Notes under the pieces: generated by a model | What the model was told of the DNA's origin: nothing | Databases searched by the model: none | The model's input: only the letters and a program-made list of their open reading frames with translations | Assembly: GCA_015067705.1 (NCBI GenBank) | Contig: SVLW01000010.1 | Location: forward strand, 2,434-66,433 | Source: Oscillospiraceae bacterium | Lineage (GTDB): Bacteria; Bacillota; Clostridia; Oscillospirales; QAMX01 | Length of the DNA: 64,000 bases | Direction: 5' to 3' | Shown here: piece after piece, positions 1 to 21,484 of the stretch | Layout of the letters: the number at the start of each line of letters is the position of its first letter | Numbering within the stretch: position 1 is the first letter of the stretch | Translations under genes and position numbers: made by a program

Positions 1-2340
1 ACCATGCGGACAAGCCTCAAAAACGTCATGGTGAACCGCAATATCGCCGGACGATACTATCAGGAAAGCGCCATCAAGGCCACCTGCGAGGCGCTGGCCA
101 GAAACCGTCGCAAGGCGCTGCTCGTCATGGCCACCGGTTCCGGTAAAACCAGAACCGTCATTGCGCTGTGCGATGTCCTGCTGCAGCACGGGTGGGTGAA
201 GAACATTCTGTTCCTGGCCGACCGCAATTCGCTGGTCACGCAGGCCAAGCGCAGTTTCGTGAATCTGCTGCCCGACCTGTCCGTCACCAATCTCTGCGAA
301 GAAAAGGATAATTTCACCGCACATTGCGTATTTTCTACATACCAGACCATGATGAACTGCATCGACGAGATGAAGGACGAGCAGGGGAAACTGTTCACCT
401 GCGGTCATTTTGATCTGGTCATCTGTGATGAAGCGCATCGATCCATTTACAATAAGTATCAGGATATTTTCAACTACTTCGATGCGCCGCTAGTAGGCCT
501 GACCGCTACGCCCAAGGATGAAATCGAAAAGAACACCTACGAAGTCTTTGAACTGGAAAACGGTGTACCGACCTATGGTTATGAATTGGCGCAGGCCGTC
601 CATGATGGTTTCCTTGTTGACTATATGAGTGTAGAGACCAAGCTGAAGTTCATCGAACAGGGCATTGTCTACGACGAACTGTCCGAGGAAGAAAAGGCCG
701 AGTATGAAGAAAAGTTCATTGATGAAAACGACGAATTGCCCGATCGCATCAATTCCTCTGCACTGAACGAATGGGTTTTCAACGAGGATACCATCCGGGA
801 AGTACTGAACATTCTGATGACCAACTGCATTCGGATTGATTACGGCGAAAAGCTGGGCAAAACCATCATCTTTGCGAAAAATCACACCCATGCAGAGAAA
901 ATCTTCGAGATTTTCAACCGGGAATATCCGCATCTGCCCGGATACGCAAAAGTGATCGACAACTATATGACCTATTCCCAGAGCGCTATCGACGAGTTTT
1001 CTGATCCGAAGAAACTGCCGCAGATTGCTATTTCTGTCGACATGCTGGACACCGGTATCGATGTACCGGAATGCTTGAATCTGGTGTTCTTCAAGAAGGT
1101 CATGAGTAAGGCGAAGTTCTGGCAGATGATCGGTCGAGGCACGCGACTGTGTTCCGGACTCTTGGATGGTGCCGATAAGGATAAATTCTACATCTTTGAT
1201 TTCTGCGGCAACTTCGAATTCTTCCGTATGGGCGGTAAGGGTCGCTCCACCGAACAGCTTGCTTTACAAAGTGCCTTGTTCAACCTCAAAGCGCAGATTA
1301 CTCATAAACTGCAGGATCTGGAATTTCAGACAGAGGAACTATCTGCATTCCGCAAAGCATTGGTCGAGGAAATGGTACGCAAGGTTCAGGAACTCAATCG
1401 AGACAGCTTCGCCGTTCGCCAGCATCTGAAATATGTGGAGCTCTTTTCAGATCCCGATCGCTATCAGACGATCTCCTACGAAGATACATTGACCATCAAA
1501 GCAGAATTGGCTCCGCTTATCACACCCGATGACGACGATCCCAAAGCTCTGCGGTTTGATGCACTGATGTATGGCATCGAGCTTGCATATCTGGTGGGGA
1601 AGAAATACAGCCGCGGCAGAAGTGACCTTCTGAAAAAAGTGCGGGGCATTGCAGGAGTTGCCAACATCCCGGAGATCAAGGCGCGTTCGGAATTGATCGA
1701 CAAAATTCTGAAAACAGATTATTTGGATCATGCAGGGATCAATGAATTCGAGCATATTCGAGAAAATCTGCGAGACTTAATAAAGTATATTATTACCGAA
1801 CATCCTACATATACCACGAAGTTTGACGATGAAATCCTGTCAATGGAATGGAACGAGGCGGAACTGGAAAGCGATGATCTGAAGAATTATCGGGCCAAGG
1901 CGGAATTCTATGTAAGACAGCATCAGGATCATCTGGTGATCGCGAAACTCAGAAGCAATCTCCCGCTGACCAAGACCGATTTGGAGAGCCTGGAGAAAAT
2001 CCTCTGGAGCGAAGTGGGATCTCGACAGGACTACGAAGCAGAGTATGGCGAAAAGCCTCTGGGCGAGTTTGTACGCGAAGTTGTAGGTATGGATATGAAT
2101 GCCGCCAAAGCTGCCTTCGCAGAATACTTAAATGACACCAGCCTGGACAGTCGGCAGATCTATTTTGTCAACCAGATCGTGGAGTACATCATCCATAACG
2201 GACTGATGAAAGATCTATCCGTGCTGCAGGAAACACCCTTCACGGATAAAGGCAGCGTGGTTGATGTTTTCAACGACCTGTCAGTCTGGATGGGTATCAA
2301 AGCTACTATTGATCAGATCAACGCCAATGCCATGGCATAA
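1..2340 (+). CDS. hsdR: Type I restriction enzyme R subunit (HsdR-like SF2 helicase), 5'-partial at window edge
   Basis: Walker A 'MATGSGKT', DEAH box 'VICDEAHRS', 'GLTATP', and a long C-terminal helical domain typical of EcoEI-type HsdR. The frame is open to base 1 and the N-terminal nuclease domain is missing. Confidence 0.8.
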   Translation, partial: TMRTSLKNVMVNRNIAGRYYQESAIKATCEALARNRRKALLVMATGSGKTRTVIALCDVLLQHGWVKNILFLADRNSLVTQAKRSFVNLLPDLSVTNLCEEKDNFTAHCVFSTYQTMMNCIDEMKDEQGKLFTCGHFDLVICDEAHRSIYNKYQDIFNYFDAPLVGLTATPKDEIEKNTYEVFELENGVPTYGYELAQAVHDGFLVDYMSVETKLKFIEQGIVYDELSEEEKAEYEEKFIDENDELPDRINSSALNEWVFNEDTIREVLNILMTNCIRIDYGEKLGKTIIFAKNHTHAEKIFEIFNREYPHLPGYAKVIDNYMTYSQSAIDEFSDPKKLPQIAISVDMLDTGIDVPECLNLVFFKKVMSKAKFWQMIGRGTRLCSGLLDGADKDKFYIFDFCGNFEFFRMGGKGRSTEQLALQSALFNLKAQITHKLQDLEFQTEELSAFRKALVEEMVRKVQELNRDSFAVRQHLKYVELFSDPDRYQTISYEDTLTIKAELAPLITPDDDDPKALRFDALMYGIELAYLVGKKYSRGRSDLLKKVRGIAGVANIPEIKARSELIDKILKTDYLDHAGINEFEHIRENLRDLIKYIITEHPTYTTKFDDEILSMEWNEAELESDDLKNYRAKAEFYVRQHQDHLVIAKLRSNLPLTKTDLESLEKILWSEVGSRQDYEAEYGEKPLGEFVREVVGMDMNAAKAAFAEYLNDTSLDSRQIYFVNQIVEYIIHNGLMKDLSVLQETPFTDKGSVVDVFNDLSVWMGIKATIDQINANAMA

Positions 2341-2361
2341 ACAGTTGCAGATTGGAGGCAT

Positions 2362-2970
2362 ATGATGGCACTAGAAAACAAATTAGGACTTACCAGTTCT
2401 GTCGAACTGGCTCGTGAAGAAGAACGCATCAGTAAGAAAAAAGCATTGGAGCTCTTTGAATGCGGAATGCTTAATACATTGGAAGCAGGAACGTTTTCCG
2501 CCCTCTGCACGATCCACAAATATCTCTTCGATGAAATCTACGACTTTGCAGGTGAGATGCGAACCGTGAACCTATCCAAAGGCACCTTCCGCTTCGCCCC
2601 GTTGGTATACCTGGAAGCTTCTCTCGCAAACATCGAAAAAATGCCGCAAAGCACCTTCGATGAGATTGTGGAGAAATACGTAGAAATGAATATCGCCCAT
2701 CCCTTCCGAGAAGGAAATGGACGAAGCACGCGAATTTGGCTGTATCAGATTTTCAAAAAGGAACTGCATCAGGTAGTTGATTGGAGTATGGTCGATAAAG
2801 AAGATTATCTCTTGGCCATGGAGCGCAGCCCCATCAGAGATATCGAAATCAAGCATGTTCTGAAAGCTGCCTTGACGGACGATATCAATAGCCGCGAAGT
2901 ATACATGAAGGGCATTGACCACAGCTACTACTACGAAGGATATATAACCTTCAAAACAGAAGATCTATAA
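2362..2970 (+). CDS. fic: Fic family protein (AMPylase-type), class III with C-terminal inhibitory motif
   Basis: Canonical Fic motif 'HPFREGNGRSTR'. The C-terminal 'SYYYEG' fits the S/TxxxE(G/N) inhibitory helix. SD GGAGG lies upstream, 21 nt after the hsdR stop. Confidence 0.88.
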   Translation: MMALENKLGLTSSVELAREEERISKKKALELFECGMLNTLEAGTFSALCTIHKYLFDEIYDFAGEMRTVNLSKGTFRFAPLVYLEASLANIEKMPQSTFDEIVEKYVEMNIAHPFREGNGRSTRIWLYQIFKKELHQVVDWSMVDKEDYLLAMERSPIRDIEIKHVLKAALTDDINSREVYMKGIDHSYYYEGYITFKTEDL

Positions 2971-2977
2971 AAAATCG

Positions 2978-3002
2978 CCCACCGATTATGCAAATCGGTG
3001 GG
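2978..3002 (-). terminator. Intrinsic terminator (minus strand, possibly bidirectional)
   Basis: Stem CCCACCGATT/AATCGGTGGG. On the minus strand it is followed by ATTTTTTAT. It lies between the fic stop and the end of the small minus-strand genes. Confidence 0.6.
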
Positions 3003-3674: not shown

Positions 3675-5351
3675 TCAGACTTTAAGTATTGCGGGTGCTT
3701 TTGTATCAAACGAAACCGAAATCGTAGTCCCCTTGTTCACTTCGCTCTCCACAGCGATTTTGCCATGGTGATACTGCACGGCGTGCTTCACGATGGACAG
3801 GCCGAGGCCGGTGCCGCCGGACTGTTTGGAGTGGCTCTTGTCCACGCGATAGAAGCGCTCAAACACCTTGTCCTGATGCTCGGGCGCGATGCCGATGCCG
3901 GTGTCCTGCACGCGCAGCAGTACCTCGCCGGGTTTCTGCGCCACAGACACGTTCACGCTGCCGCCGGGCGTATTGTACTTGATGGCATTGTCGCAAAGGT
4001 TATATACCACCTCATAAAGCAGTCTGCGGACGCCGTTCACCACGCCATCATCGCCGGTGACTTCCAAAGAAACGTCTTTCAGCTTTGCGGCATCTGCCAG
4101 GGTCTCGCAGACCTCCTCGGAGAGAACCCTGAGAGAAACGTCCTCACAGGGCATTTCGGCGCCTTCGTCCAGCTCGGACAGGCGGATAATATCGTCGATC
4201 AGAAAGACCAGTCTGGATGCTTCCTTGCGGATAAGGCCCACAAAGCGGGGCACATCCTCGTCCTTCACAATGCCGTTTTCCATCAGTTCCGCAGAGCCGA
4301 TGATGGACTGCAGCGGGGTTTTCAGTTCATGGGACACATTGGCGGTGAATTCCTTCCGGTGCCGCTCGGCGTTCACCTGCTCGGTCACGTCAAAGGCAAG
4401 GATCACCATGCCGTGACTGCTGCCGTCAGAATCAATGCGGCTGAGATCAAACTGATACTCTCTGCCGTTTTCCCCGGCGCGGAAATCGGCGTGGCCCTGT
4501 GTCCTTGCTTCTTCCAGAGCCAGCCGCATATTTTGCTTGCGGTCGATGGTCAGAAAGTCCGCGCCCACGCGGGCGCCTCCGGCTCCGAACAGCGTTCTTG
4601 CCGCAGGATTGATGCTGAGGATCCGGTCCATGCTGTCCAGAAGGACCAGGCCTTCCTTCATGTTGCCGGTGATCTGGTCAAATTCGTCCTGTTTCTGCTG
4701 CAAAGCCTGCATCTGGCTTTTGATTTCCACGTGCTGTGCATGGATGCGGTGCAAAAGCGGGGACAGCTCCTCATAGGCTTCGTTCTCCATGGGCTTTTCC
4801 AGATCCAGTTTGTTCAGCGGCTCCACCACTTTTCTTGCCATACGGTGAGCCAGCCATGCGGAAAGCGCAATGGCAATTACGAGAACAATGGCAATCGGTT
4901 GGAGCATACCGAGAACCAGAACCAATGCGGTTGCTCGGCTGACGGAAATACGGAGTACACTGCCGTCATTCAGTCGGGCGGCTTCATAAATGGTCTGCTC
5001 CGTCAGGGTGGAGGACTGACGGGTGCTGCTGCCGGCGCCGGAAACAAGGGCCTCCCGGATTTCTTCCCGGTCGGCGTGGTTTTCCATGGCGGCGGCATCG
5101 GCGTGGCTGTCAAAAAGTACCGTGCCGTCGGGATCCACCCAGGTCAGGCGATAGCGGGTATGGTCCAGGCCCTCCAGATAGCTTTCGCCAAGCTGCTCCG
5201 TCGCGTCGGCCGCCAGGCTCAGCTCGTCTCTCAACTGGGACTCCTGCACATCTCCAAAATACGGGTACAACGCACCGACCACGATGACAAGACTGGAAAA
5301 CAGTACCGCAATGGCCACCGTGAGAATGGCCTGGAAAATCTTACTTGTCAT
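3675..5351 (-). CDS. phoR: Phosphate-regulon sensor histidine kinase (PhoR-like)
   Basis: N-terminal TM segments, a PAS-like region, H-box 'SHELKTPL', N/G boxes 'DNAIKY' and 'GTGLGLSIV'. It is the last gene of the pst-pho operon. Confidence 0.88.
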   Translation of the reverse strand: MTSKIFQAILTVAIAVLFSSLVIVVGALYPYFGDVQESQLRDELSLAADATEQLGESYLEGLDHTRYRLTWVDPDGTVLFDSHADAAAMENHADREEIREALVSGAGSSTRQSSTLTEQTIYEAARLNDGSVLRISVSRATALVLVLGMLQPIAIVLVIAIALSAWLAHRMARKVVEPLNKLDLEKPMENEAYEELSPLLHRIHAQHVEIKSQMQALQQKQDEFDQITGNMKEGLVLLDSMDRILSINPAARTLFGAGGARVGADFLTIDRKQNMRLALEEARTQGHADFRAGENGREYQFDLSRIDSDGSSHGMVILAFDVTEQVNAERHRKEFTANVSHELKTPLQSIIGSAELMENGIVKDEDVPRFVGLIRKEASRLVFLIDDIIRLSELDEGAEMPCEDVSLRVLSEEVCETLADAAKLKDVSLEVTGDDGVVNGVRRLLYEVVYNLCDNAIKYNTPGGSVNVSVAQKPGEVLLRVQDTGIGIAPEHQDKVFERFYRVDKSHSKQSGGTGLGLSIVKHAVQYHHGKIAVESEVNKGTTISVSFDTKAPAILKV

Positions 5352-6021
5352 ATCCTGCCTCCCAGCGATAGCCTACATTCCGCACGGTTTCGATCATCCT
5401 GCCATAGCCGTCCAGTTTCTGGCGCAGGGTGCGGATATGGGAATCCAGCGTGCGGGAATCGCCCATATAGTCCAGTTTCCACACCTGAGAGAAGAGCTGT
5501 TCTCTGGTATAAACCATGCCGGGATGGGAAAGAAACATCCGAAGCAGCTCAAATTCCTTGTATGTCAGCAGAACCCGGCTGCCGTCCACGCTGACCGTAT
5601 GCTCGTCCAGATTGACCACCAGTCCGCCCGCCTTCAGGAGCTTTGACACCTGCTGGGGCTGGCTGCGGCGCAGGACGGCCTTCACCCGGGACACCATCTC
5701 CATCATGCTGAACGGCTTTACGATATAATCATCCGCGCCCAGATCCAGGCCGCGGATGCGGTCATATTCCTGCCCCTTGGCGGTGGCCATGATCACGGGG
5801 ATTCGGCTGTACTCCATGGATTCCTTCATCCCGGACAGAAGCTCGATACCGTCCATGCCGGGCAGCATCACATCCAAAACAACCAGTTCCGGCTGTTCTT
5901 TTTTCAGCGCTTCCCAAAAGGAAAGGCCATCTGCAAAGCTCTTTGTTTCAAATCCGGCGGAGTTCAGCGCATAGATTGCAATGTCGCGGATCGCCGCGTC
6001 ATCCTCAACATACCAGATCAT
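5341..6021 (-). CDS. phoP: OmpR-family response regulator (PhoP/PhoB-like)
   Basis: Receiver domain (MIWYVEDD, DVMLPGMDG) plus a winged-helix C-terminus (RTLDSHIRTLRQKL, VRNVGYRW). The start was moved to the internal ATG at 6021. The gene overlaps phoR by 11 nt. Confidence 0.88.
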   Translation of the reverse strand: MIWYVEDDAAIRDIAIYALNSAGFETKSFADGLSFWEALKKEQPELVVLDVMLPGMDGIELLSGMKESMEYSRIPVIMATAKGQEYDRIRGLDLGADDYIVKPFSMMEMVSRVKAVLRRSQPQQVSKLLKAGGLVVNLDEHTVSVDGSRVLLTYKEFELLRMFLSHPGMVYTREQLFSQVWKLDYMGDSRTLDSHIRTLRQKLDGYGRMIETVRNVGYRWEAGYDK

Positions 6022-15876: not shown

Positions 15877-15928
15877 GCGCACCCCGCACTATTCTGATAA
15901 AGCGCTAAAACTTTTTTCAATTTCCCAC

Positions 15929-15957
15929 TTGCATTTTCTAAATGACCGGTGTAGAAT
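15929..15957 (+). promoter_or_regulatory. SigA-type promoter of the aro leader
   Basis: TTGCAT(15929)-17 nt-TAGAAT(15952) with TG just upstream of the -10 element. Confidence 0.5.
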
Positions 15958-15989
15958 GAGCTTACACTTTTTCAGGAAGGAGAGCAGTC

Positions 15990-16049
15990 ATGACCATTCC
16001 GTTTGCATACTTCTATTATTATCTGTCAAGGGCTGCCCGCATCCTGTGA
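15990..16049 (+). CDS. Candidate leader peptide MTIPFAYFYYYLSRAARIL (Tyr/Phe-rich)
   Basis: SD GGAAGGAG lies 5-6 nt upstream. It has 19 codons, with 4 Tyr and 2 Phe within residues 5-11. Hairpins and a terminator follow it, ahead of DAHP synthase. Confidence 0.55.
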   Translation: MTIPFAYFYYYLSRAARIL

Positions 16050-16097
16050 AGTCCGAGAGAACGCCATAGATTCTCTCGCCAAACCACAAATTGGACA

Positions 16098-16150
16098 GTC
16101 CGTATTCGTCGTGCCATTTTACTGCAAACGAATGCGGACTTTTCTTTTTC
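16098..16150 (+). terminator. Intrinsic terminator (attenuator) in the aro leader
   Basis: 12-bp stem GTCCGTATTCGT/ACGAATGCGGAC with one G-U pair, followed by TTTTCTTTTTC. It ends 33 nt before the DAHP synthase ATG. Confidence 0.65.
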
Positions 16151-16182
16151 CCCGAACCATTTCACGAAAGAAGGCATCCCAT

Positions 16183-17211
16183 ATGCACATGACCATCCAC
16201 AGAAAGCTTCCGGAACCCCAGGAAGTCAAAAAAGAATTCCCGTTAAGCGAACGCATGGCACAGGAGAAGGCAGAGCGCGACCGGCGCATCTGCGCCGTGT
16301 TCGACGGCCACAGCGACCAGTTTCTTCTGATCATCGGCCCCTGCTCCGCCGATCACAGCGAGCCCGTGCTGGAATATATTGCAAGACTCCGCAGAATCCA
16401 GGAACAGGTGGCGGAGAAGATCATCCTCATTCCCCGCATCTACACCAATAAGCCCCGCACCACCGGACAGGGTTATAAGGGCATGCTGCACCAGCCCGAT
16501 CCGGAGGCAAAGCCGGATATGTACCGCGGTCTTGTCTCCATTCGGGAGCTGCATCTGGCCGCGCTGCGAGATTATGGCTTCTCCTGCGCCGACGAAATGC
16601 TCTATCCGGAGAACTACGAATACCTCTCGGATCTCCTCTCTTATCATGCCGTGGGCGCCCGGTCGGTCGAGAACCAACAGCATCGCCTCACCGCCAGCGG
16701 CATCGAGGTGCCTGTAGGCATGAAGAACCCCACCGGCGGCGACCTGGGTGTGATGATGAACTCCATCGTGGCGGCCCAGTCCGGTCACACCTTCCTCTAC
16801 CGGGGATGGGAAGTCACCAGCGCCGGCAACCCCTATGCCCACGCGATCCTCCGCGGCTATACGGACTACAGCGGCAGAAACGTGTCGAACTACCATTACG
16901 AGGATCTTCTGCGGGTGGAGGAGCTTTATGAGAAATCCAATCTCACAAACCCCTCCGTCATCGTGGACACCAACCACAGCAATTCCGGCAAGCAGTATTT
17001 AGAGCAGATCCGCATCGCCAAGGACATCGTTCACAGCCGCAACCAGAACGCCACCATCCGCCGTCTGGTGAAGGGCCTCATGATCGAGAGCTATCTGGAG
17101 GACGGCGCACAGAGCGCCGGGGAGCATGTCTTCGGCAAATCCATCACGGATCCTTGCCTCGGATGGGAAAAGACCGAGCGCCTGATCCTGGATCTGGCGG
17201 AAAAATTATAA
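16183..17211 (+). CDS. 3-deoxy-7-phosphoheptulonate (DAHP) synthase, class I
   Basis: 'LLIIGPCS', 'RIYTNKPRTT..GYKGM', 'VGARSVENQQHR', 'GMKNPTGG'. The start was set at the ATG at 16183, after the terminator. Confidence 0.85.
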   Translation: MHMTIHRKLPEPQEVKKEFPLSERMAQEKAERDRRICAVFDGHSDQFLLIIGPCSADHSEPVLEYIARLRRIQEQVAEKIILIPRIYTNKPRTTGQGYKGMLHQPDPEAKPDMYRGLVSIRELHLAALRDYGFSCADEMLYPENYEYLSDLLSYHAVGARSVENQQHRLTASGIEVPVGMKNPTGGDLGVMMNSIVAAQSGHTFLYRGWEVTSAGNPYAHAILRGYTDYSGRNVSNYHYEDLLRVEELYEKSNLTNPSVIVDTNHSNSGKQYLEQIRIAKDIVHSRNQNATIRRLVKGLMIESYLEDGAQSAGEHVFGKSITDPCLGWEKTERLILDLAEKL

Positions 17212-17236: not shown

Positions 17237-18094
17237 ATGATCGTAGATATCTCAAAACGGATTTTGATCGTCGGCCTGGGCTTACTCGGCGGCAGCTATG
17301 CCCGGGTCTTAAGGCGCTTTGGCTTCCCGATCAGCGCCATCACGCTGGAACAGCGGGACATCGACTACGCCATCCGGGAGGGCATCATTGACGAGGGCTC
17401 CACCCAGCCCGACCCGGAGCTGGTCGGCGCGGCGGATCTCATCGTGTTCGCCCTGTATCCCCATACGTTTGTTGAATGGATCGAACAGTATCAGGGTCTT
17501 TTCAAAAGCGGGGCCCTGATCACGGACGTCACCGGCGTCAAGGGCAGCATCGTCTATCGCATCCAGGGGATGCTGCGGCCGGATGTGGAGTTCATCGCGG
17601 CCCATCCCATGGCGGGCCGGGAGGTGTCCGGCGTGGAGAACAGCACCGACCGGATGTTCTCGGGCGCCAACTACATCGTCACGCCCACAGCGCGCAACAC
17701 CCCCGAGGCCATCGAAACCTGTATGGAGCTGGGGCGGCTTCTGGGCTTTTCCCATGTGGCCACGCTGTCCCCGGAGGAGCACGACGAGATGATCGGCTTC
17801 CTCTCCCAGTTGACCCACTGCATCGCCATCACGCTGATGACCTGCAACGACAAGGAGCACATGGAGCAGTTCACCGGCGACTCCTTCCGGGATCTGACCC
17901 GCATCGCCCGGATCAACGACCTGATGTGGAGCGAGCTCTTCCTGGAAAACAAGTCCGCGCTTTTGGAGCAGATGGATCTCTTCCTTACCCAGTTTACCCG
18001 TCTGAAAACCATGCTGGAGGAAGAGGACGTGGAGGGCATGCGGGCGATGATGCGCCACTCCACCGAGAGAAGGGCGCTTTTTGACAAGAAATAA
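17237..18094 (+). CDS. tyrA: Prephenate dehydrogenase
   Basis: Rossmann motif 'ILIVGLGLLGGS', 'HPMAGRE', 'SPEEHDEMIGFLSQLTH'. Confidence 0.85.
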   Translation: MIVDISKRILIVGLGLLGGSYARVLRRFGFPISAITLEQRDIDYAIREGIIDEGSTQPDPELVGAADLIVFALYPHTFVEWIEQYQGLFKSGALITDVTGVKGSIVYRIQGMLRPDVEFIAAHPMAGREVSGVENSTDRMFSGANYIVTPTARNTPEAIETCMELGRLLGFSHVATLSPEEHDEMIGFLSQLTHCIAITLMTCNDKEHMEQFTGDSFRDLTRIARINDLMWSELFLENKSALLEQMDLFLTQFTRLKTMLEEEDVEGMRAMMRHSTERRALFDKK

Positions 18095-18203
18095 GCCTCC
18101 CGCCCCGGAACTTCCGTTTTTTGCCAGATTCCATTTGCTTTTTCCCGTTTTTTGTGCTAGTCTGAGAATAAGAACCAAGCATCCGGAAAAGGAGAATACC
18201 GCT

Positions 18204-19268
18204 ATGACATCAACAGAACGTATTCGCGCCATGATCGCGGGCAAGCCCGTGGATCAGATTTGTCAGTCTGCCTGGTGGCATATGCCCATGGTGGATAAAA
18301 ACCCCAAGGATCTGGCCAAGGCCATCATTGATTTTACGGAAAACAACCACTTTGACTTTGTGAAGATGATGTACAACACCCTCTTCTTCGCCCAGAACTT
18401 CGGCGTGGAGGTGGCATACTCCCAGGATCCCCTGGTCTGGATGCCCAAGGTGGTGCATCAGGTGATCAATCACCCTGCGGATTTCAAGAAATTCCGTCCT
18501 ATCTCTGTGACGGAGGGCAATCTGGGCCGCCAGCTGGAGGCCACCAAGATTGTCATCGACCACTTCCAGGGCACCGTCCCCATCGTGGGCACCACCTTTA
18601 CGGATCTCTCCTTCTATAAGGATATTCTGACCTTTGGCTGGAACGAATGTGTCCTGGCCGGTATGGAATACCACCGGCAGGAGCTACATGATGCGCTGGA
18701 AATCATCAACGAGCAGAACGTGCGCTGGATCGAGGCGTTGGCGGAGATTGGCGTGGACGGGATGTTCATTGCCTCCCACTATGCCACCGACGACTGGCTG
18801 GACGACGCCGCATTTGATGAGTTCTGCCGCCCCTATGATCTGAAGCTCATCGAGGCCGCGAACCGGAAGATGTGGTTCAATATGTTCCACGTCCACGGCA
18901 GCGGAAAGCTCTCCTTCCACCGCTTTGTGGATTATCCTGTCCAGGCCCTCACCTGGGAGGATATCTGGGGCGCACCGGACTGCACCAGTTTCGCCGACGC
19001 CGCCAAACTGGTGGACGACCGGAAGATCTTCATCGGCGGCATCGAGATGTGGAGCGATTACTACAGCGCCTCAAACGACCGCGAGGAAGTGAAGGAACGC
19101 TTAAAGCAGCGCTGCCGCGACGCCGTGAACGCCGTGGGCAAGGACCGCTTTATTCTGGCGCCCGGCTGCGGCGCACCCCTGGACGTGCCGCCCTATCGCT
19201 TCACCCTCCAGCATGAGGCCGTCATGGAAGTGACGGAAGAACTGCGGGCAGCGGGAAAATGCTGCTGA
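18204..19268 (+). CDS. Uroporphyrinogen decarboxylase (URO-D) family protein (MtaA/CmuA-like methyltransferase fold)
   Basis: N-terminal 'ERIRAMIAGKPVD' and overall URO-D-like length and pattern. The start was set at the ATG at 18204, which has SD AAGGAG. Confidence 0.7.
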   Translation: MTSTERIRAMIAGKPVDQICQSAWWHMPMVDKNPKDLAKAIIDFTENNHFDFVKMMYNTLFFAQNFGVEVAYSQDPLVWMPKVVHQVINHPADFKKFRPISVTEGNLGRQLEATKIVIDHFQGTVPIVGTTFTDLSFYKDILTFGWNECVLAGMEYHRQELHDALEIINEQNVRWIEALAEIGVDGMFIASHYATDDWLDDAAFDEFCRPYDLKLIEAANRKMWFNMFHVHGSGKLSFHRFVDYPVQALTWEDIWGAPDCTSFADAAKLVDDRKIFIGGIEMWSDYYSASNDREEVKERLKQRCRDAVNAVGKDRFILAPGCGAPLDVPPYRFTLQHEAVMEVTEELRAAGKCC

Positions 19269-19339: not shown

Positions 19340-19630
19340 TGTATACCGCAAATGCGTGGAGCAGAAACCAGTAGGTTGGAAAGAACCGCCAAGAGAATTG
19401 CCGGATGGTGCGAGGCAAGGGGGGCGTCCTTCTCGAATTCATTCTGTTAGCAGTGCCCTGAATGGGAGCGATCCCTAGTAGGAGGCAACGGGTGTTCCCG
19501 TTACAGAACTAAGGTATGTCAGTACCTGACAAGGCCGCAATCGCGAGAGCGCGGCGAACTGAGGTGGTACCACGGGATCTGATCATCTCGTCCTCTGTAT
19601 TCTTCATCGGAATGCAGAGGACGTTTTTTC
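19340..19630 (+). promoter_or_regulatory. T-box riboswitch leader, specifier UUC (Phe)
   Basis: Stem I elements: AGUA (19370s), AGAGA (19391-19396) and distal GGUGCGA (19407-19413). The specifier loop reads GAA-UUC-A, with UUC at 19438-19440. The conserved T-box sequence AACUGAGGUGGUACCACGG lies at 19557-19575. The terminator CGTCCTCTG/CAGAGGACG plus T6 lies at 19589-19629. Confidence 0.85.
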
Positions 19631-19698: not shown

Positions 19699-21006
19699 AT
19701 GGCACAGAATTATTACCAGAAAGAAATTGAAACCATGTCCCGCGAGGAGATGCGGAAACTCCAGTCGGAAAAACTCGTCAAACAGGTGAAGCACGTCTAT
19801 GAAAACGTGCCCTATTACCGCAATCTCATGGAGGAAAAGGGCGTCACGCCCGCAGACATCCAGAGCATCGATGATCTCCACAAGCTGCCTTTCCTTTCAA
19901 AGGCCGATCTGCGGGACGCCTATCCCTACGGCCTCCTGGCAAAGCCCCTTGCGGACTGTGTCCGCATCCAGTCCACCTCCGGCACCACCGGCCGCCGCGT
20001 GGTGGCATTCTACACCCAGAATGACATCAACCTCTGGGAGGACTGCTGCGCCCGCGCCATCATGGCCGCAGGCGGCACCAACGAGGATGTCTGCCAGGTG
20101 GCATACGGCTACGGCCTGTTCACCGGCGGCCCCGGCCTCAACGGCGGTTCTCACAAGGTGGGCTGTCTGACGCTGCCCATGTCCTCCGGTAATACCGAGC
20201 GGCAGATCCAGTTCATGATGGACTTAAACGCCACCATTCTCTGCTGCACGCCCTCTTACGCCGCCTATATCGGCGAGACCCTGAAGGAACAGGGCTATAC
20301 CCCCGACCAGATCCCGCTGAAGGCCGGTATCTTCGGTGCAGAGCCCTGGACCGAGGAAATGCGCCGCGGCATCGAGGCCTCCCTTGGCATCAAGGCCTAT
20401 GATATCTATGGTCTTACGGAGACCACCGGCCCCGGTGTGGCATTCGAATGCAGCGAGCAGACCGGCATGCACGTGAACGAGGACCACTTCTTCGCCGAGA
20501 TCATCGATCCGGACACCGGTGAAGTGCTGCCCGAGGGCAGCAAGGGCGAGCTGGTGTTCACCTCTCTTGATAAGGAGGCCTTCCCCCTCCTGCGTTACCG
20601 CACCCGCGATATCTGCGTGCTGTCCCGCGAAAAGTGTTCCTGCGGCCGCACCCTCATCAAGATGGCAAAGCCCATGGGCAGAACCGACGATATGCTCATC
20701 ATCCGCGGCGTCAACGTGTTCCCCAGCCAGATCGAAACCGTCCTCCTGAACGAGGGCTATCAGCCCAACTACCAGATCGTGGTGGATCGCGTCCGCAACA
20801 ACGACACCTTCGAGGTCAACGTGGAAATGAGCCCCGATCAGTTCACCGATAAGGTCAGCGAGATCCTCACCATGGAGAAGTCCCTGGCCAACGCCATGAA
20901 GGCCATGCTGGGCATCAATCCGGCAGTGCATCTGGTGGCGCCCAAGACCATCGCCCGCAGCGAAGGCAAGGCCGTCCGTGTCATCGACAAGCGCAAGCTG
21001 ATCTGA
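19699..21006 (+). CDS. paaK: Phenylacetate-CoA ligase family adenylate-forming enzyme
   Basis: 'SSGTTG' AMP-binding motif, 'YGLTE', 'RTDDMLIIRGVNVFPSQIE', about 435 aa (PaaK-like). Confidence 0.85.
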   Translation: MAQNYYQKEIETMSREEMRKLQSEKLVKQVKHVYENVPYYRNLMEEKGVTPADIQSIDDLHKLPFLSKADLRDAYPYGLLAKPLADCVRIQSTSGTTGRRVVAFYTQNDINLWEDCCARAIMAAGGTNEDVCQVAYGYGLFTGGPGLNGGSHKVGCLTLPMSSGNTERQIQFMMDLNATILCCTPSYAAYIGETLKEQGYTPDQIPLKAGIFGAEPWTEEMRRGIEASLGIKAYDIYGLTETTGPGVAFECSEQTGMHVNEDHFFAEIIDPDTGEVLPEGSKGELVFTSLDKEAFPLLRYRTRDICVLSREKCSCGRTLIKMAKPMGRTDDMLIIRGVNVFPSQIETVLLNEGYQPNYQIVVDRVRNNDTFEVNVEMSPDQFTDKVSEILTMEKSLANAMKAMLGINPAVHLVAPKTIARSEGKAVRVIDKRKLI

Positions 21007-21030
21007 AATAAAGGGTTTCATTGAAAGGAG

Positions 21031-21471
21031 TTGTCAGATATGGCCATCAAGCAGTTAACGATTTTTGTGCAGAACAAAAGAGGCACCATCGTCCCCGTGA
21101 CGAAAATCCTGGCAGATAACGAAGTGAATCTGAGAGCACTTTCCATCGCGGAAACCAATGACTTCGGCATTCTGCGTCTCATCGTCAATGACGAGGTCAC
21201 CGCAGAAAAGGCTCTGCGGGACGCCGGCTATCTTCTGAAGGTCATCGACGTGGTGGGCGTGAAGATCGGCGACCAGCCCGGCAAGCTCTCCTCTGCTCTG
21301 GAGGTGCTGGACAACGCGGATATCAACGTGGAATACCTCTACGCCTTTATGGCAAGAACGGAGCGTCATGCCTATGTGGTGCTGCGCGTGGAGGATAACG
21401 CCGCCGCAGAGGCAGTCCTGACGAACGCCGGCTTCCACATGATCACCGAGGCAGATATCAATAAGCTGTAA
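21031..21471 (+). CDS. ACT domain-containing protein
   Basis: Two ACT-like beta-alpha-beta-beta-alpha-beta repeats (LTIFVQNKRGTIVPVTKILAD...). It has a classic position directly after paaK-like genes. Confidence 0.78.
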   Translation: MSDMAIKQLTIFVQNKRGTIVPVTKILADNEVNLRALSIAETNDFGILRLIVNDEVTAEKALRDAGYLLKVIDVVGVKIGDQPGKLSSALEVLDNADINVEYLYAFMARTERHAYVVLRVEDNAAAEAVLTNAGFHMITEADINKL

Positions 21472-21484
21472 TCAGAAATACGAA

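Follow-up and report, generated by a model that had tools for sequence, protein, structure and literature searches.

The 64-kb window analysed in this work (the whole stretch of 64,000 nucleotides taken from contig SVLW01000010.1 of an Oscillospiraceae bacterium; G+C content 56.8%) carries on its forward strand a gene for a type I-alpha (AroF/G/H-like) 3-deoxy-D-arabino-heptulosonate 7-phosphate (DAHP) synthase at 16183-17211, here called aroF, which is followed after 25 nt by the prephenate dehydrogenase gene tyrA at 17237-18094. Both assignments were already part of the original prediction made on this DNA, and Pfam and NCBIfam agree with them (PF00793 and NF009395, the latter at 347 bits against a cut-off of 343, for aroF; PF02153 and PF20463 for tyrA). 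The upstream neighbour is a MATE transporter gene, and between it and aroF lies a leader region composed of a promoter, a short open reading frame (ORF) with a run of tyrosine and phenylalanine codons, and an intrinsic terminator. From the sequence, its modelled folding and its conservation we conclude that this leader is very probably a ribosome-mediated transcription attenuator which reads the charging of tRNA-Tyr and tRNA-Phe and controls aroF-tyrA. The original prediction had proposed the same, and its case is now stronger, as orthologous DAHP synthase genes are likewise preceded by the short ORF, its aromatic codons and the terminator.

All parts of the leader are on the forward strand. 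The putative promoter (15930-15958), read from the sequence, consists of a -35 hexamer TTGCAT at 15930-15935, a 17-nt spacer and a -10 hexamer TAGAAT at 15953-15958, which would place the transcript start near 15965; the -10 hexamer aligns with the TATAAT of the relatives described below, whose -35 hexamer is TTGAC(T/A). A Shine-Dalgarno (SD) sequence, GGAAGGAG at 15975-15982, is located 7 nt before the ATG at 15990 with which the leader ORF begins. This ORF, MTIPFAYFYYYLSRAARIL, has 19 codons plus TGA (15990-16049), and its residues 5 to 11 are encoded by the regulatory codon run TTT GCA TAC TTC TAT TAT TAT (F A Y F Y Y Y, 16002-16022), in which four codons are for Tyr and two for Phe. Phe and Tyr together make up 6.7% of the codons in the long ORFs of the window; the chance of at least six aromatic codons out of seven is therefore about 6e-7 per seven-codon window, or about 0.1 expected occurrences over all frames of the 64 kb, and the leader is the sole small ORF of the window with such a composition.

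Downstream of the run the RNA has the potential to form two alternative structures. Segment 2 (GGGCUGCCCG, 16030-16039), which lies within the leader ORF and starts 10 nt beyond the first base of the final Tyr codon, represents the 5' strand of the base of an antiterminator, and segment 3 (UGGACAGUCC, 16092-16101), as defined by the RNAalifold consensus, represents its 3' strand. The interior of the antiterminator (16045-16088) is composed of an outer helix, UGUG at 16045-16048 with CACA at 16085-16088, into which the leader stop codon (16047-16049) falls, and of an inner hairpin at 16054-16078 that was read from the sequence (CGAGAGAA, 16054-16061, with TTCTCTCG, 16071-16078). The intrinsic terminator (16097-16149) pairs AGTCCGTATTCGT (16097-16109) with ACGAATGCGGACT (16128-16140) in a stem of 13 pairs including one G-U, followed by the U-tract TTTTCTTTTT up to 16149, with a predicted energy of -20.6 kcal/mol. 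Since the last five bases of segment 3, AGUCC at 16097-16101, at the same time form the bottom of the terminator stem, by the U-tract, antiterminator and terminator are mutually exclusive. A further stretch, segment 1 (GCAGUC and its neighbours in the spacer between SD and AUG, 15982-15989), pairs with segment 2 in the minimum free energy (MFE) fold of the whole leader; in the window this helix reaches back to about 15966 and thus covers most of the 5' untranslated region, and on the folding models segment 1 may act as an anti-antiterminator. The 221-nt leader folds better than 200 out of 200 shuffled sequences (z = -3.6). The SD, the 19-codon ORF, the hairpin and the terminator are all found at the places given in the original prediction.

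The conservation of this element was addressed in two ways. A scan for DAHP synthase across the species representatives of GTDB, one genome per species, gave 80 loci at 64-84% identity to the protein of the window. In 12 of the 13 loci with a DAHP synthase at least 75% identical, the element is present upstream of the gene, as a short ORF with an SD and a Phe/Tyr run (for example MSANKFFYYFYYYSKGCPMIEFKR) followed by a terminator, 160-315 nt from the DAHP synthase. The metagenome search used an RNA-only pattern derived from two conserved segments outside the run and was thus blind to the gene. It returned 59 stretches, about half of which were chance matches inside G+C-rich coding DNA, and the full element was found at 28 loci; a DAHP synthase (80-88% identity) follows at 22 of these, another gene at two, and in four cases the contig ends before any gene. 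A covariance model of the family has 48 matches, corresponding to 47 distinct sequences, in Oscillospiraceae/Ruminococcaceae-like genomes and in metagenomes, and nearly all of the 47 distinct elements sit directly upstream of orthologous DAHP synthases. When run on the other 66 DAHP synthase loci the model produced a single weak further candidate, at locus L039. The prephenate dehydrogenase gene adjoins the DAHP synthase gene in L003, while five other relatives have it some 1.1 kb further downstream. The closest named relatives are metagenome-assembled genomes labelled Ruminococcaceae, Oscillospiraceae, Acutalibacteraceae or Clostridia, which makes the earlier description of the source as a Clostridial genome a fair one. 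The check for conservation in related genomes that had been suggested with the original prediction has thus come out in its favour, and this conservation settles that the leader is not a product of chance.

Codon counts over the 43 scorable leaders indicate selection at the level of the codons. The start codon is kept in 43 out of 43, a GGAGG-type SD stands at the same place in nearly all, and both are in frame with the run. There are between 5 and 9 Phe/Tyr codons per leader (median 7), amounting to 153 Tyr and 145 Phe codons and none for Trp, and all four codons are used (TTT 130, TAT 99, TAC 54 and TTC 15). The last five slots of the run are 95-100% Phe/Tyr, with Phe and Tyr, as well as T and C in the wobble position, interchanging across the family; the slot next to these five is unconstrained and holds A, N, K, E, S or I. 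Insertions and deletions upstream of the run are multiples of three, and the distance from the first base of the last aromatic codon to segment 2 is 8 nt in 42 of the 43 leaders, against 10 nt in the window. Directly after the run follows AAGGGCTGCCCG, which is invariant at all codon positions and is translated as KGCP in most members and as RAAR in the window and in L006; segment 2 is likewise nearly invariant at all three codon positions and is read in two frames across the family. The leader stop is found 16-31 nt past the start of segment 2, at +17 in the window. As the tail of the peptide is read in different frames, its conservation must be at the RNA level, and this combination of selection on the codons of the run and on the RNA downstream is the signature of a leader peptide and not of a functional small protein.

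Pairing of the antiterminator is supported by the alignments. On a plain MAFFT alignment the sole consensus helix returned by RNAalifold is that of GGGCUGCCCG (segment 2) with CGGACAGUCC (the family form of segment 3). In this helix 99.8% of the alignment cells are paired and every substitution seen preserves pairing (G-U to A-U or G-C, U-A to U-G, G-C to G-U), while a C-to-U change in L013 closes the single internal mismatch; the copy in the window forms nine out of nine possible pairs. Conservation is 90% or more in the CGGAC half of segment 3, which lies outside of the terminator, and the terminator alone cannot account for this. Between the two segments each sequence folds an outer helix (UUUUGU/ACAAAA in the family, UGUG/CACA here) and an inner hairpin of variable sequence, and in a model-fitted alignment compensatory changes were seen at eight of the eight pairs of the inner hairpin and at five of the six pairs of the outer helix (15 of all 26 pairs); the structure-blind MAFFT alignment still gave seven of eight and four of six. 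Cells were paired at 85.5% in the model-fitted alignment, compared to 33-46% with slid partners, and none of 500 shuffles reached any of the five measures; the corresponding values for the structure-blind alignment were 80.9% and 33-50%. The lower stem of the family terminator is 94.7% paired and is followed by a U-tract.

These data lead to a different antiterminator from the two pairings proposed in the original prediction. The segments on which these were based are present as placed (CCGCAT at 16037-16042, AAGTCCG at 16049-16055 and ATGCGG/CGGACTT at 16132-16141). For the first pairing, CCGCAU with AUGCGG, the CAT occurs after the conserved GGGCTGCCCG in only five of 45 sequences; in the second, AAGUCCG was to pair with the 3' arm of the terminator, and it is instead the 5' arm of the inner hairpin, covarying with its own 3' arm. 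Judged from the aligned sequences, neither pairing is conserved, and both look like accidents of the window sequence.

The region upstream of aroF therefore contains a leader ORF with a ribosome-binding site, a cluster of cognate codons, a terminator before the biosynthetic gene and a mutually exclusive antiterminator, and no conserved structure was found in the region of the codon run in the family alignment. The strong conservation of segments 2 and 3 and of the long hairpin as RNA might also be expected of a riboswitch, or of an attenuator to which a protein binds, as with TRAP or PyrR, sensing an aromatic metabolite or a regulator, with the ORF being incidental; the antiterminator/terminator switch would indeed serve any trigger that hides segment 2. 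It should be noted that such a device would not require the SD and start codon to be in frame with the run in nearly all of the 43 leaders, nor Phe/Tyr and synonymous codons to interchange while the aromatic class is held as stated above. The hairpin is moreover rod-like with no junction resembling a ligand pocket, and a search of 15900-16182 at the gathering score or at E values up to 10 gave no match to any Rfam family, T-box or riboswitch, nor to the Rfam leader families Phe_leader, Trp_leader, His_leader, Leu_leader, Thr_leader and leu/phe leader. We consider a metabolite- or protein-triggered switch to be very unlikely.

How far the geometry of the leader would suit a trigger by the ribosome depends, in the folding models, on segment 1 being unavailable. 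Under the assumption, taken from established footprint sizes, that the leading edge of the ribosome is about 11 nt beyond the first base in the A site, a ribosome stalled anywhere in the run would cover 2-3 nt of segment 2 at most. When the region from the SD to the ribosome was made unavailable, the antiterminator was the MFE structure of the nascent RNA in 41 out of 41 members, the window included, and it was still the MFE structure in 34 of 41 after addition of the 3' arm of the terminator; the antiterminator has a median energy of -23.1 kcal/mol and the terminator one of -21.0 kcal/mol. The untranslated full-length RNA adopts the terminator fold in 37 of 41 members. Pairing of 5 nt or more of segment 2 with upstream sequence is seen in the MFE structure of 36 of 41 relatives, mostly with the SD-AUG spacer (segment 1 reads GCAGC or GUAGCC in relatives), in a segment 1:2 duplex with a median of -12.2 kcal/mol and a median z of -1.7 over 41 relatives. 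A ribosome at the stop codon of the window leader (16047) would cover 16032-16058, on segment 2, and the terminator is then the fold predicted for the leader.

From the parts, conservation, codon-level selection, covariation and exclusivity computed above we infer the stalling with its timing, the part played by segment 1 and, possibly, pausing at the inner hairpin, which together would make up the following scheme. Transcription would start at about 15965 and a ribosome would load on the leader ORF at once. If Tyr-tRNA or Phe-tRNA were scarce it would stall in the F-A-Y-F-Y-Y-Y run with its leading edge at or just before segment 2, and the freed segment 2 would pair with segment 3 once this is made; the helix so formed, with the outer helix and inner hairpin that it encloses, would give an antiterminator of about 70 nt, which would sequester the AGUCC at 16097-16101 and allow the polymerase to read into aroF-tyrA. 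With both amino acids plentiful the ribosome would reach the stop codon at 16047-16049, cover segment 2 and unwind the 5' half of the antiterminator; segment 3 would then pair with segment 4 and transcription would end at 16149. In an untranslated leader, segments 1 and 2 would pair and the terminator would form by default. Stalling would thus lead to read-through into the genes for the pathway-entry and Tyr-branch enzymes, and induction by stalling has the sign that a biosynthetic operon calls for. The sign also bears on the idea that the nascent poly-aromatic peptide arrests the ribosome alone or together with free Tyr or Phe, as TnaC does, and reports excess. A nascent chain such as FYYFYYF is out of the ordinary, and its class is conserved; since the geometry makes stalling yield read-through, arrest of this type would have excess product inducing its own biosynthetic operon, which would be perverse, and the order of Phe and Tyr, the flanking residues and the length of the run (5-9 codons) vary, unlike in known arrest peptides. 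The probability of such an arrest is in our opinion very low indeed.

Several observations weigh against control by a stalled ribosome as outlined here. Segments 2 and 3 are almost invariant, so that the support for their pairing comes from perfect complementarity and from five wobble-compatible changes, with no double compensatory changes among them. Most relatives have their leader stop 31 nt beyond the point where segment 2 starts. The codon then falls in the apical loop of the inner hairpin, and the terminating ribosome would there be inside the antiterminator and not on segment 2. When the 27-nt footprint of the stalled ribosome alone was masked in RNAfold, segments 1 and 2 paired around the ribosome and the terminator was predicted for the window, and the antiterminator was obtained in only 21 of 41 nascent relatives; the constrained fold which had been suggested as a check of the original prediction thus gives segment 1:2 pairing and termination. 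The model consequently assumes that segment 1 is unavailable during stalling, for which a queued or initiating ribosome, a lasting contact between SD and anti-SD, or sterics are plausible causes. This result is a caveat and not a refutation, because the program does not physically model the closing of a helix over a bound ribosome. The promoter had been called good in the original prediction; the hexamers, the spacer and the coordinates hold, and the -35 hexamer is weaker than implied, as it matches TTGACA at only three of six positions, for which reason the promoter was not listed by a consensus scan. Finally, one close ortholog, L002, has a DAHP synthase 83% identical to that of the window and neither the leader ORF nor the attenuator. 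At 2880-3000 of that locus only the terminator of the upstream gene, a TATAAT promoter and a ribosome-binding site are seen, in an apparent loss of the element.

Other members of the family depart from the single unit upstream of a DAHP synthase. Tandem attenuators, that is two complete units before the gene, were observed at seven loci (L003 2645-2968, L081 1587-1906, L085 4151-4451, L094 1-294, L103 6914-7215, L110 1129-1450 and L116 1383-1706). The second copy has the peptide tail ...PQIEFKR, lacks the segment 1 pairing and has no promoter of its own, which implies two checkpoints on one transcript. At L106 (163-276) the scaffold of segments 1 to 4 (91 bits) precedes genes for chorismate mutase (PF01817) and chorismate synthase (PF01264) in place of a DAHP synthase, and the leader has shrunk to MRNRRFALFS with a stop just ahead of segment 2; this element is a decayed copy or else senses Phe through two codons. 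L091 has a canonical member on its minus strand (5342-5457; MIFNNKFYYYYYYFEKGCPSFVKNEI and a terminator), but what comes next is a promoter-like stretch and the gene for an AMP-binding acyl-CoA ligase in place of a DAHP synthase, probably as the result of a rearrangement. Within the 64-kb window the element is present only once.

These members also inform the two remaining explanations. It is extremely unlikely that the ORF encodes a small hydrophobic protein with a function of its own and that the terminator merely limits read-through from the MATE transporter gene: the SD is good and small aromatic-rich peptides do exist, yet the reading frame of the C-terminal half and the place where it ends differ between members of the family, the terminator stands between a dedicated promoter and aroF, and two such units occur in series at the seven tandem loci. 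A decayed or constitutive relic in a G+C-rich host, whose inherited parts no longer regulate, would fit a window copy that is the second most divergent complete member (71 bits compared to 74-114 for the others, with only L013 lower), that differs in frame and spacing (10 nt instead of 8, early stop), and whose full-length MFE favours the terminator from segment 2 onward, the more so as L106 shows that such leaders can decay; it is nevertheless just as improbable, with all parts intact (six aromatic codons, all segment 2:3 pairs, terminator), with the early stop placing the terminating ribosome directly on segment 2, as suits the mechanism, and with the leader conserved within the species. On this last point, a 100% identical DAHP synthase is present on five JGI metagenome contigs, and in the four whose DNA was read, which derive from different samples, the leader is identical as well.

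Beyond the family, most DAHP synthases with 74% identity or less (L014-L078, at about 2100-3000) are found in the order aroA-tyrA-aroF with about 20 nt between tyrA and aroF. With the remaining genes mostly behind aroA-tyrA their control region is to be sought elsewhere, upstream of aroA and beyond the DNA examined. A scan of the examined DNA of 20 of these loci at the Rfam gathering scores identified tRNAs only and no T-box, and no uORFs (upstream ORFs) with aromatic runs were found upstream of tyrA in the loci of this order. An apparently conserved 40-aa uORF (MDRFK...ERRxLFDK) before the DAHP synthase of L016 and later loci was rejected, as it is the C-terminus of prephenate dehydrogenase in this same gene order. 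At three loci with DAHP synthases of 65-69% identity there are uORFs with aromatic runs followed by terminators: L039 (2774-2970; …RFYYYHH…), L049 (2793-3000; …FTYFYF…) and L058 (2764-3000; …YSYFYF…). The first is the weak match to the covariance model, at 21.6 bits, and the RNA sequence of the other two is unrelated; for the Phe/Tyr-run uORF and terminator of L049 and L058 no antiterminator could be defined. Aromatic leaders on DAHP synthase genes may have arisen or diverged repeatedly in the Clostridia.

Downstream of tyrA the window carries a gene of the URO-D/MtaA-like methyltransferase family (18081-19268, PF01208), the start of which in a metagenome gene call is about 110 nt past tyrA. 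The next operon had been said to use a T-box, which the Rfam search upholds (19348-19598, with E 5e-19 and 89.1 bits, slightly below the gathering score of 93). Apart from this T-box, the only match to a leader model elsewhere in the window was a chance-level His_leader on the minus strand at 21477. By its sequence the T-box (19348-19623) is probably Phe-specific, because 'GAA UUC A' aligns to the specifier position of the Rfam consensus. It is followed by a gene for a PaaK-like phenylacetate-CoA ligase (19699-21471; TIGR02155 at 521 bits, under the cut-off of 646) and by one for an ACT-pair protein (PF19571). A Phe T-box on a PaaK-like ligase hints at synthesis of Phe from phenylacetate. A PaaK-like ligase gene also neighbours the DAHP synthase gene in L005 and L012.

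If the leader works as proposed, it offers a testable account of how entry into the shikimate pathway is controlled in abundant and mostly uncultured gut Clostridia. Tyrosine would join the amino acids that are read by leader peptides, on equal terms with Phe, and a member of the Firmicutes could combine a T-box with a leader peptide, at a distance of 3 kb from each other, in the control of related aromatic functions. The covariance model and the 47 distinct sequences can improve the annotation of metagenomes, in which ORFs of 19-26 codons are now missed or called hypothetical proteins, and the family could supply a compact Tyr/Phe-responsive part for the engineering of anaerobes. More tentatively, and in our view possible rather than probable, the elements may constitute a large undescribed attenuator family of Oscillospiraceae/Ruminococcaceae-like bacteria of gut and rumen, with joint sensing of Tyr and Phe, three unusual features and redeployment at L106. 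If so, the anti-antiterminator strand in the SD-AUG spacer would couple default termination to the occupancy of the leader ribosome-binding site; the antiterminator hairpin would enclose the leader stop and may in addition act as a pause hairpin; the unit would often be tandem-duplicated, with its two checkpoints in series; and the RNA scaffold would have been reused with another leader before chorismate mutase and chorismate synthase. As the mechanism is a textbook one, the gain is in breadth and not in principle.

In Escherichia coli the aroF-tyrA operon is controlled by the TyrR repressor (see also PMC11802643). Leader-peptide attenuators as such are known from the Firmicutes, where the leu/phe leader motif of Lactococcus is one. 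Described or predicted cases further include His leader peptides in the Bacillus cereus group (PMC2965389) and in Clostridioides difficile, other Peptostreptococcaceae and Erysipelotrichales (PMC9413887), the Leu-rich ilv-leu leader of Staphylococcus aureus (PMC5794164) and the candidate from PMC8632094 discussed below, and to call such an attenuator unexpected in this phylum, as in the original prediction, was therefore an overstatement. The His and Leu leaders share mechanism and phylum with the window element and differ in the amino acids, in the operons and in having unrelated RNA sequences. Our full-text literature search brought up no account of a Tyr/Phe leader upstream of aroF-tyrA in Clostridia.

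A description close to the window family is that of uORFC-13-1 (Brewer et al., 2021; PMC8632094), which occurs exclusively upstream of aroF, in Acholeplasma and unassigned environmental sequences (24 representatives), and which was reported with -35 and -10 hexamers, a ribosome-binding site, a start codon, a U-rich run coding for Phe, an adjacent terminator and one further paired substructure. All of these features are present in the window family, a match to the verbal description only; in that report 'at least one phenylalanine' is noted, with no Tyr/Phe run and no model of alternative structures. Acholeplasma was absent among the 80 DAHP synthase loci of the species scan and in the homologue search, which covered the close clade at 85-100% identity and in which roughly 120 or more DAHP synthase clusters had 85-89% identity. 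On its sequence the window element would be a new member of the classical attenuator class, and would be already known if identical to uORFC-13-1, with which it has been compared by description only. Similarly, the aroR-aroF leader of Corynebacterium glutamicum (Neshat et al., 2014), as far as the account in PMC11802643 goes, has a Phe-Tyr-Phe leader responding to Phe but not to Tyr; like the window leader it places aromatic codons directly upstream of a DAHP synthase operon, and stalling enhances read-through. Set beside ours by that description, it differs in its actinobacterial host and in having three regulatory codons compared to 5-9 here.

Tyr and Phe T-boxes, such as the one 3.2 kb downstream in the window, perform the same task in Firmicutes, sensing tRNA charging to antiterminate aromatic amino-acid genes. 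A T-box binds the uncharged tRNA directly and needs no translation, whereas the window leader has neither T-box sequence nor Stem I features. Mechanistic counterparts are the enterobacterial attenuators trpL-trpE, pheL-pheA, pheM-pheST and hisL, with which the window family shares a translated leader containing codons for the product, one strand common to antiterminator and terminator, a 1:2 pairing that would terminate by default in the untranslated leader, and, on the proposed mechanism, an outcome decided by the position of the ribosome. The segment 1:2 pairing resembles that of the trp leader, shifted upstream of the start codon. In contrast to the enterobacterial systems, to which no sequence or model similarity was found (Rfam leader families, E up to 10), the family uses Tyr and Phe in equal numbers, has its segment 1 in the SD-AUG spacer and not in the ORF, holds the leader stop within an antiterminator hairpin of about 70 nt, and belongs to Clostridia.

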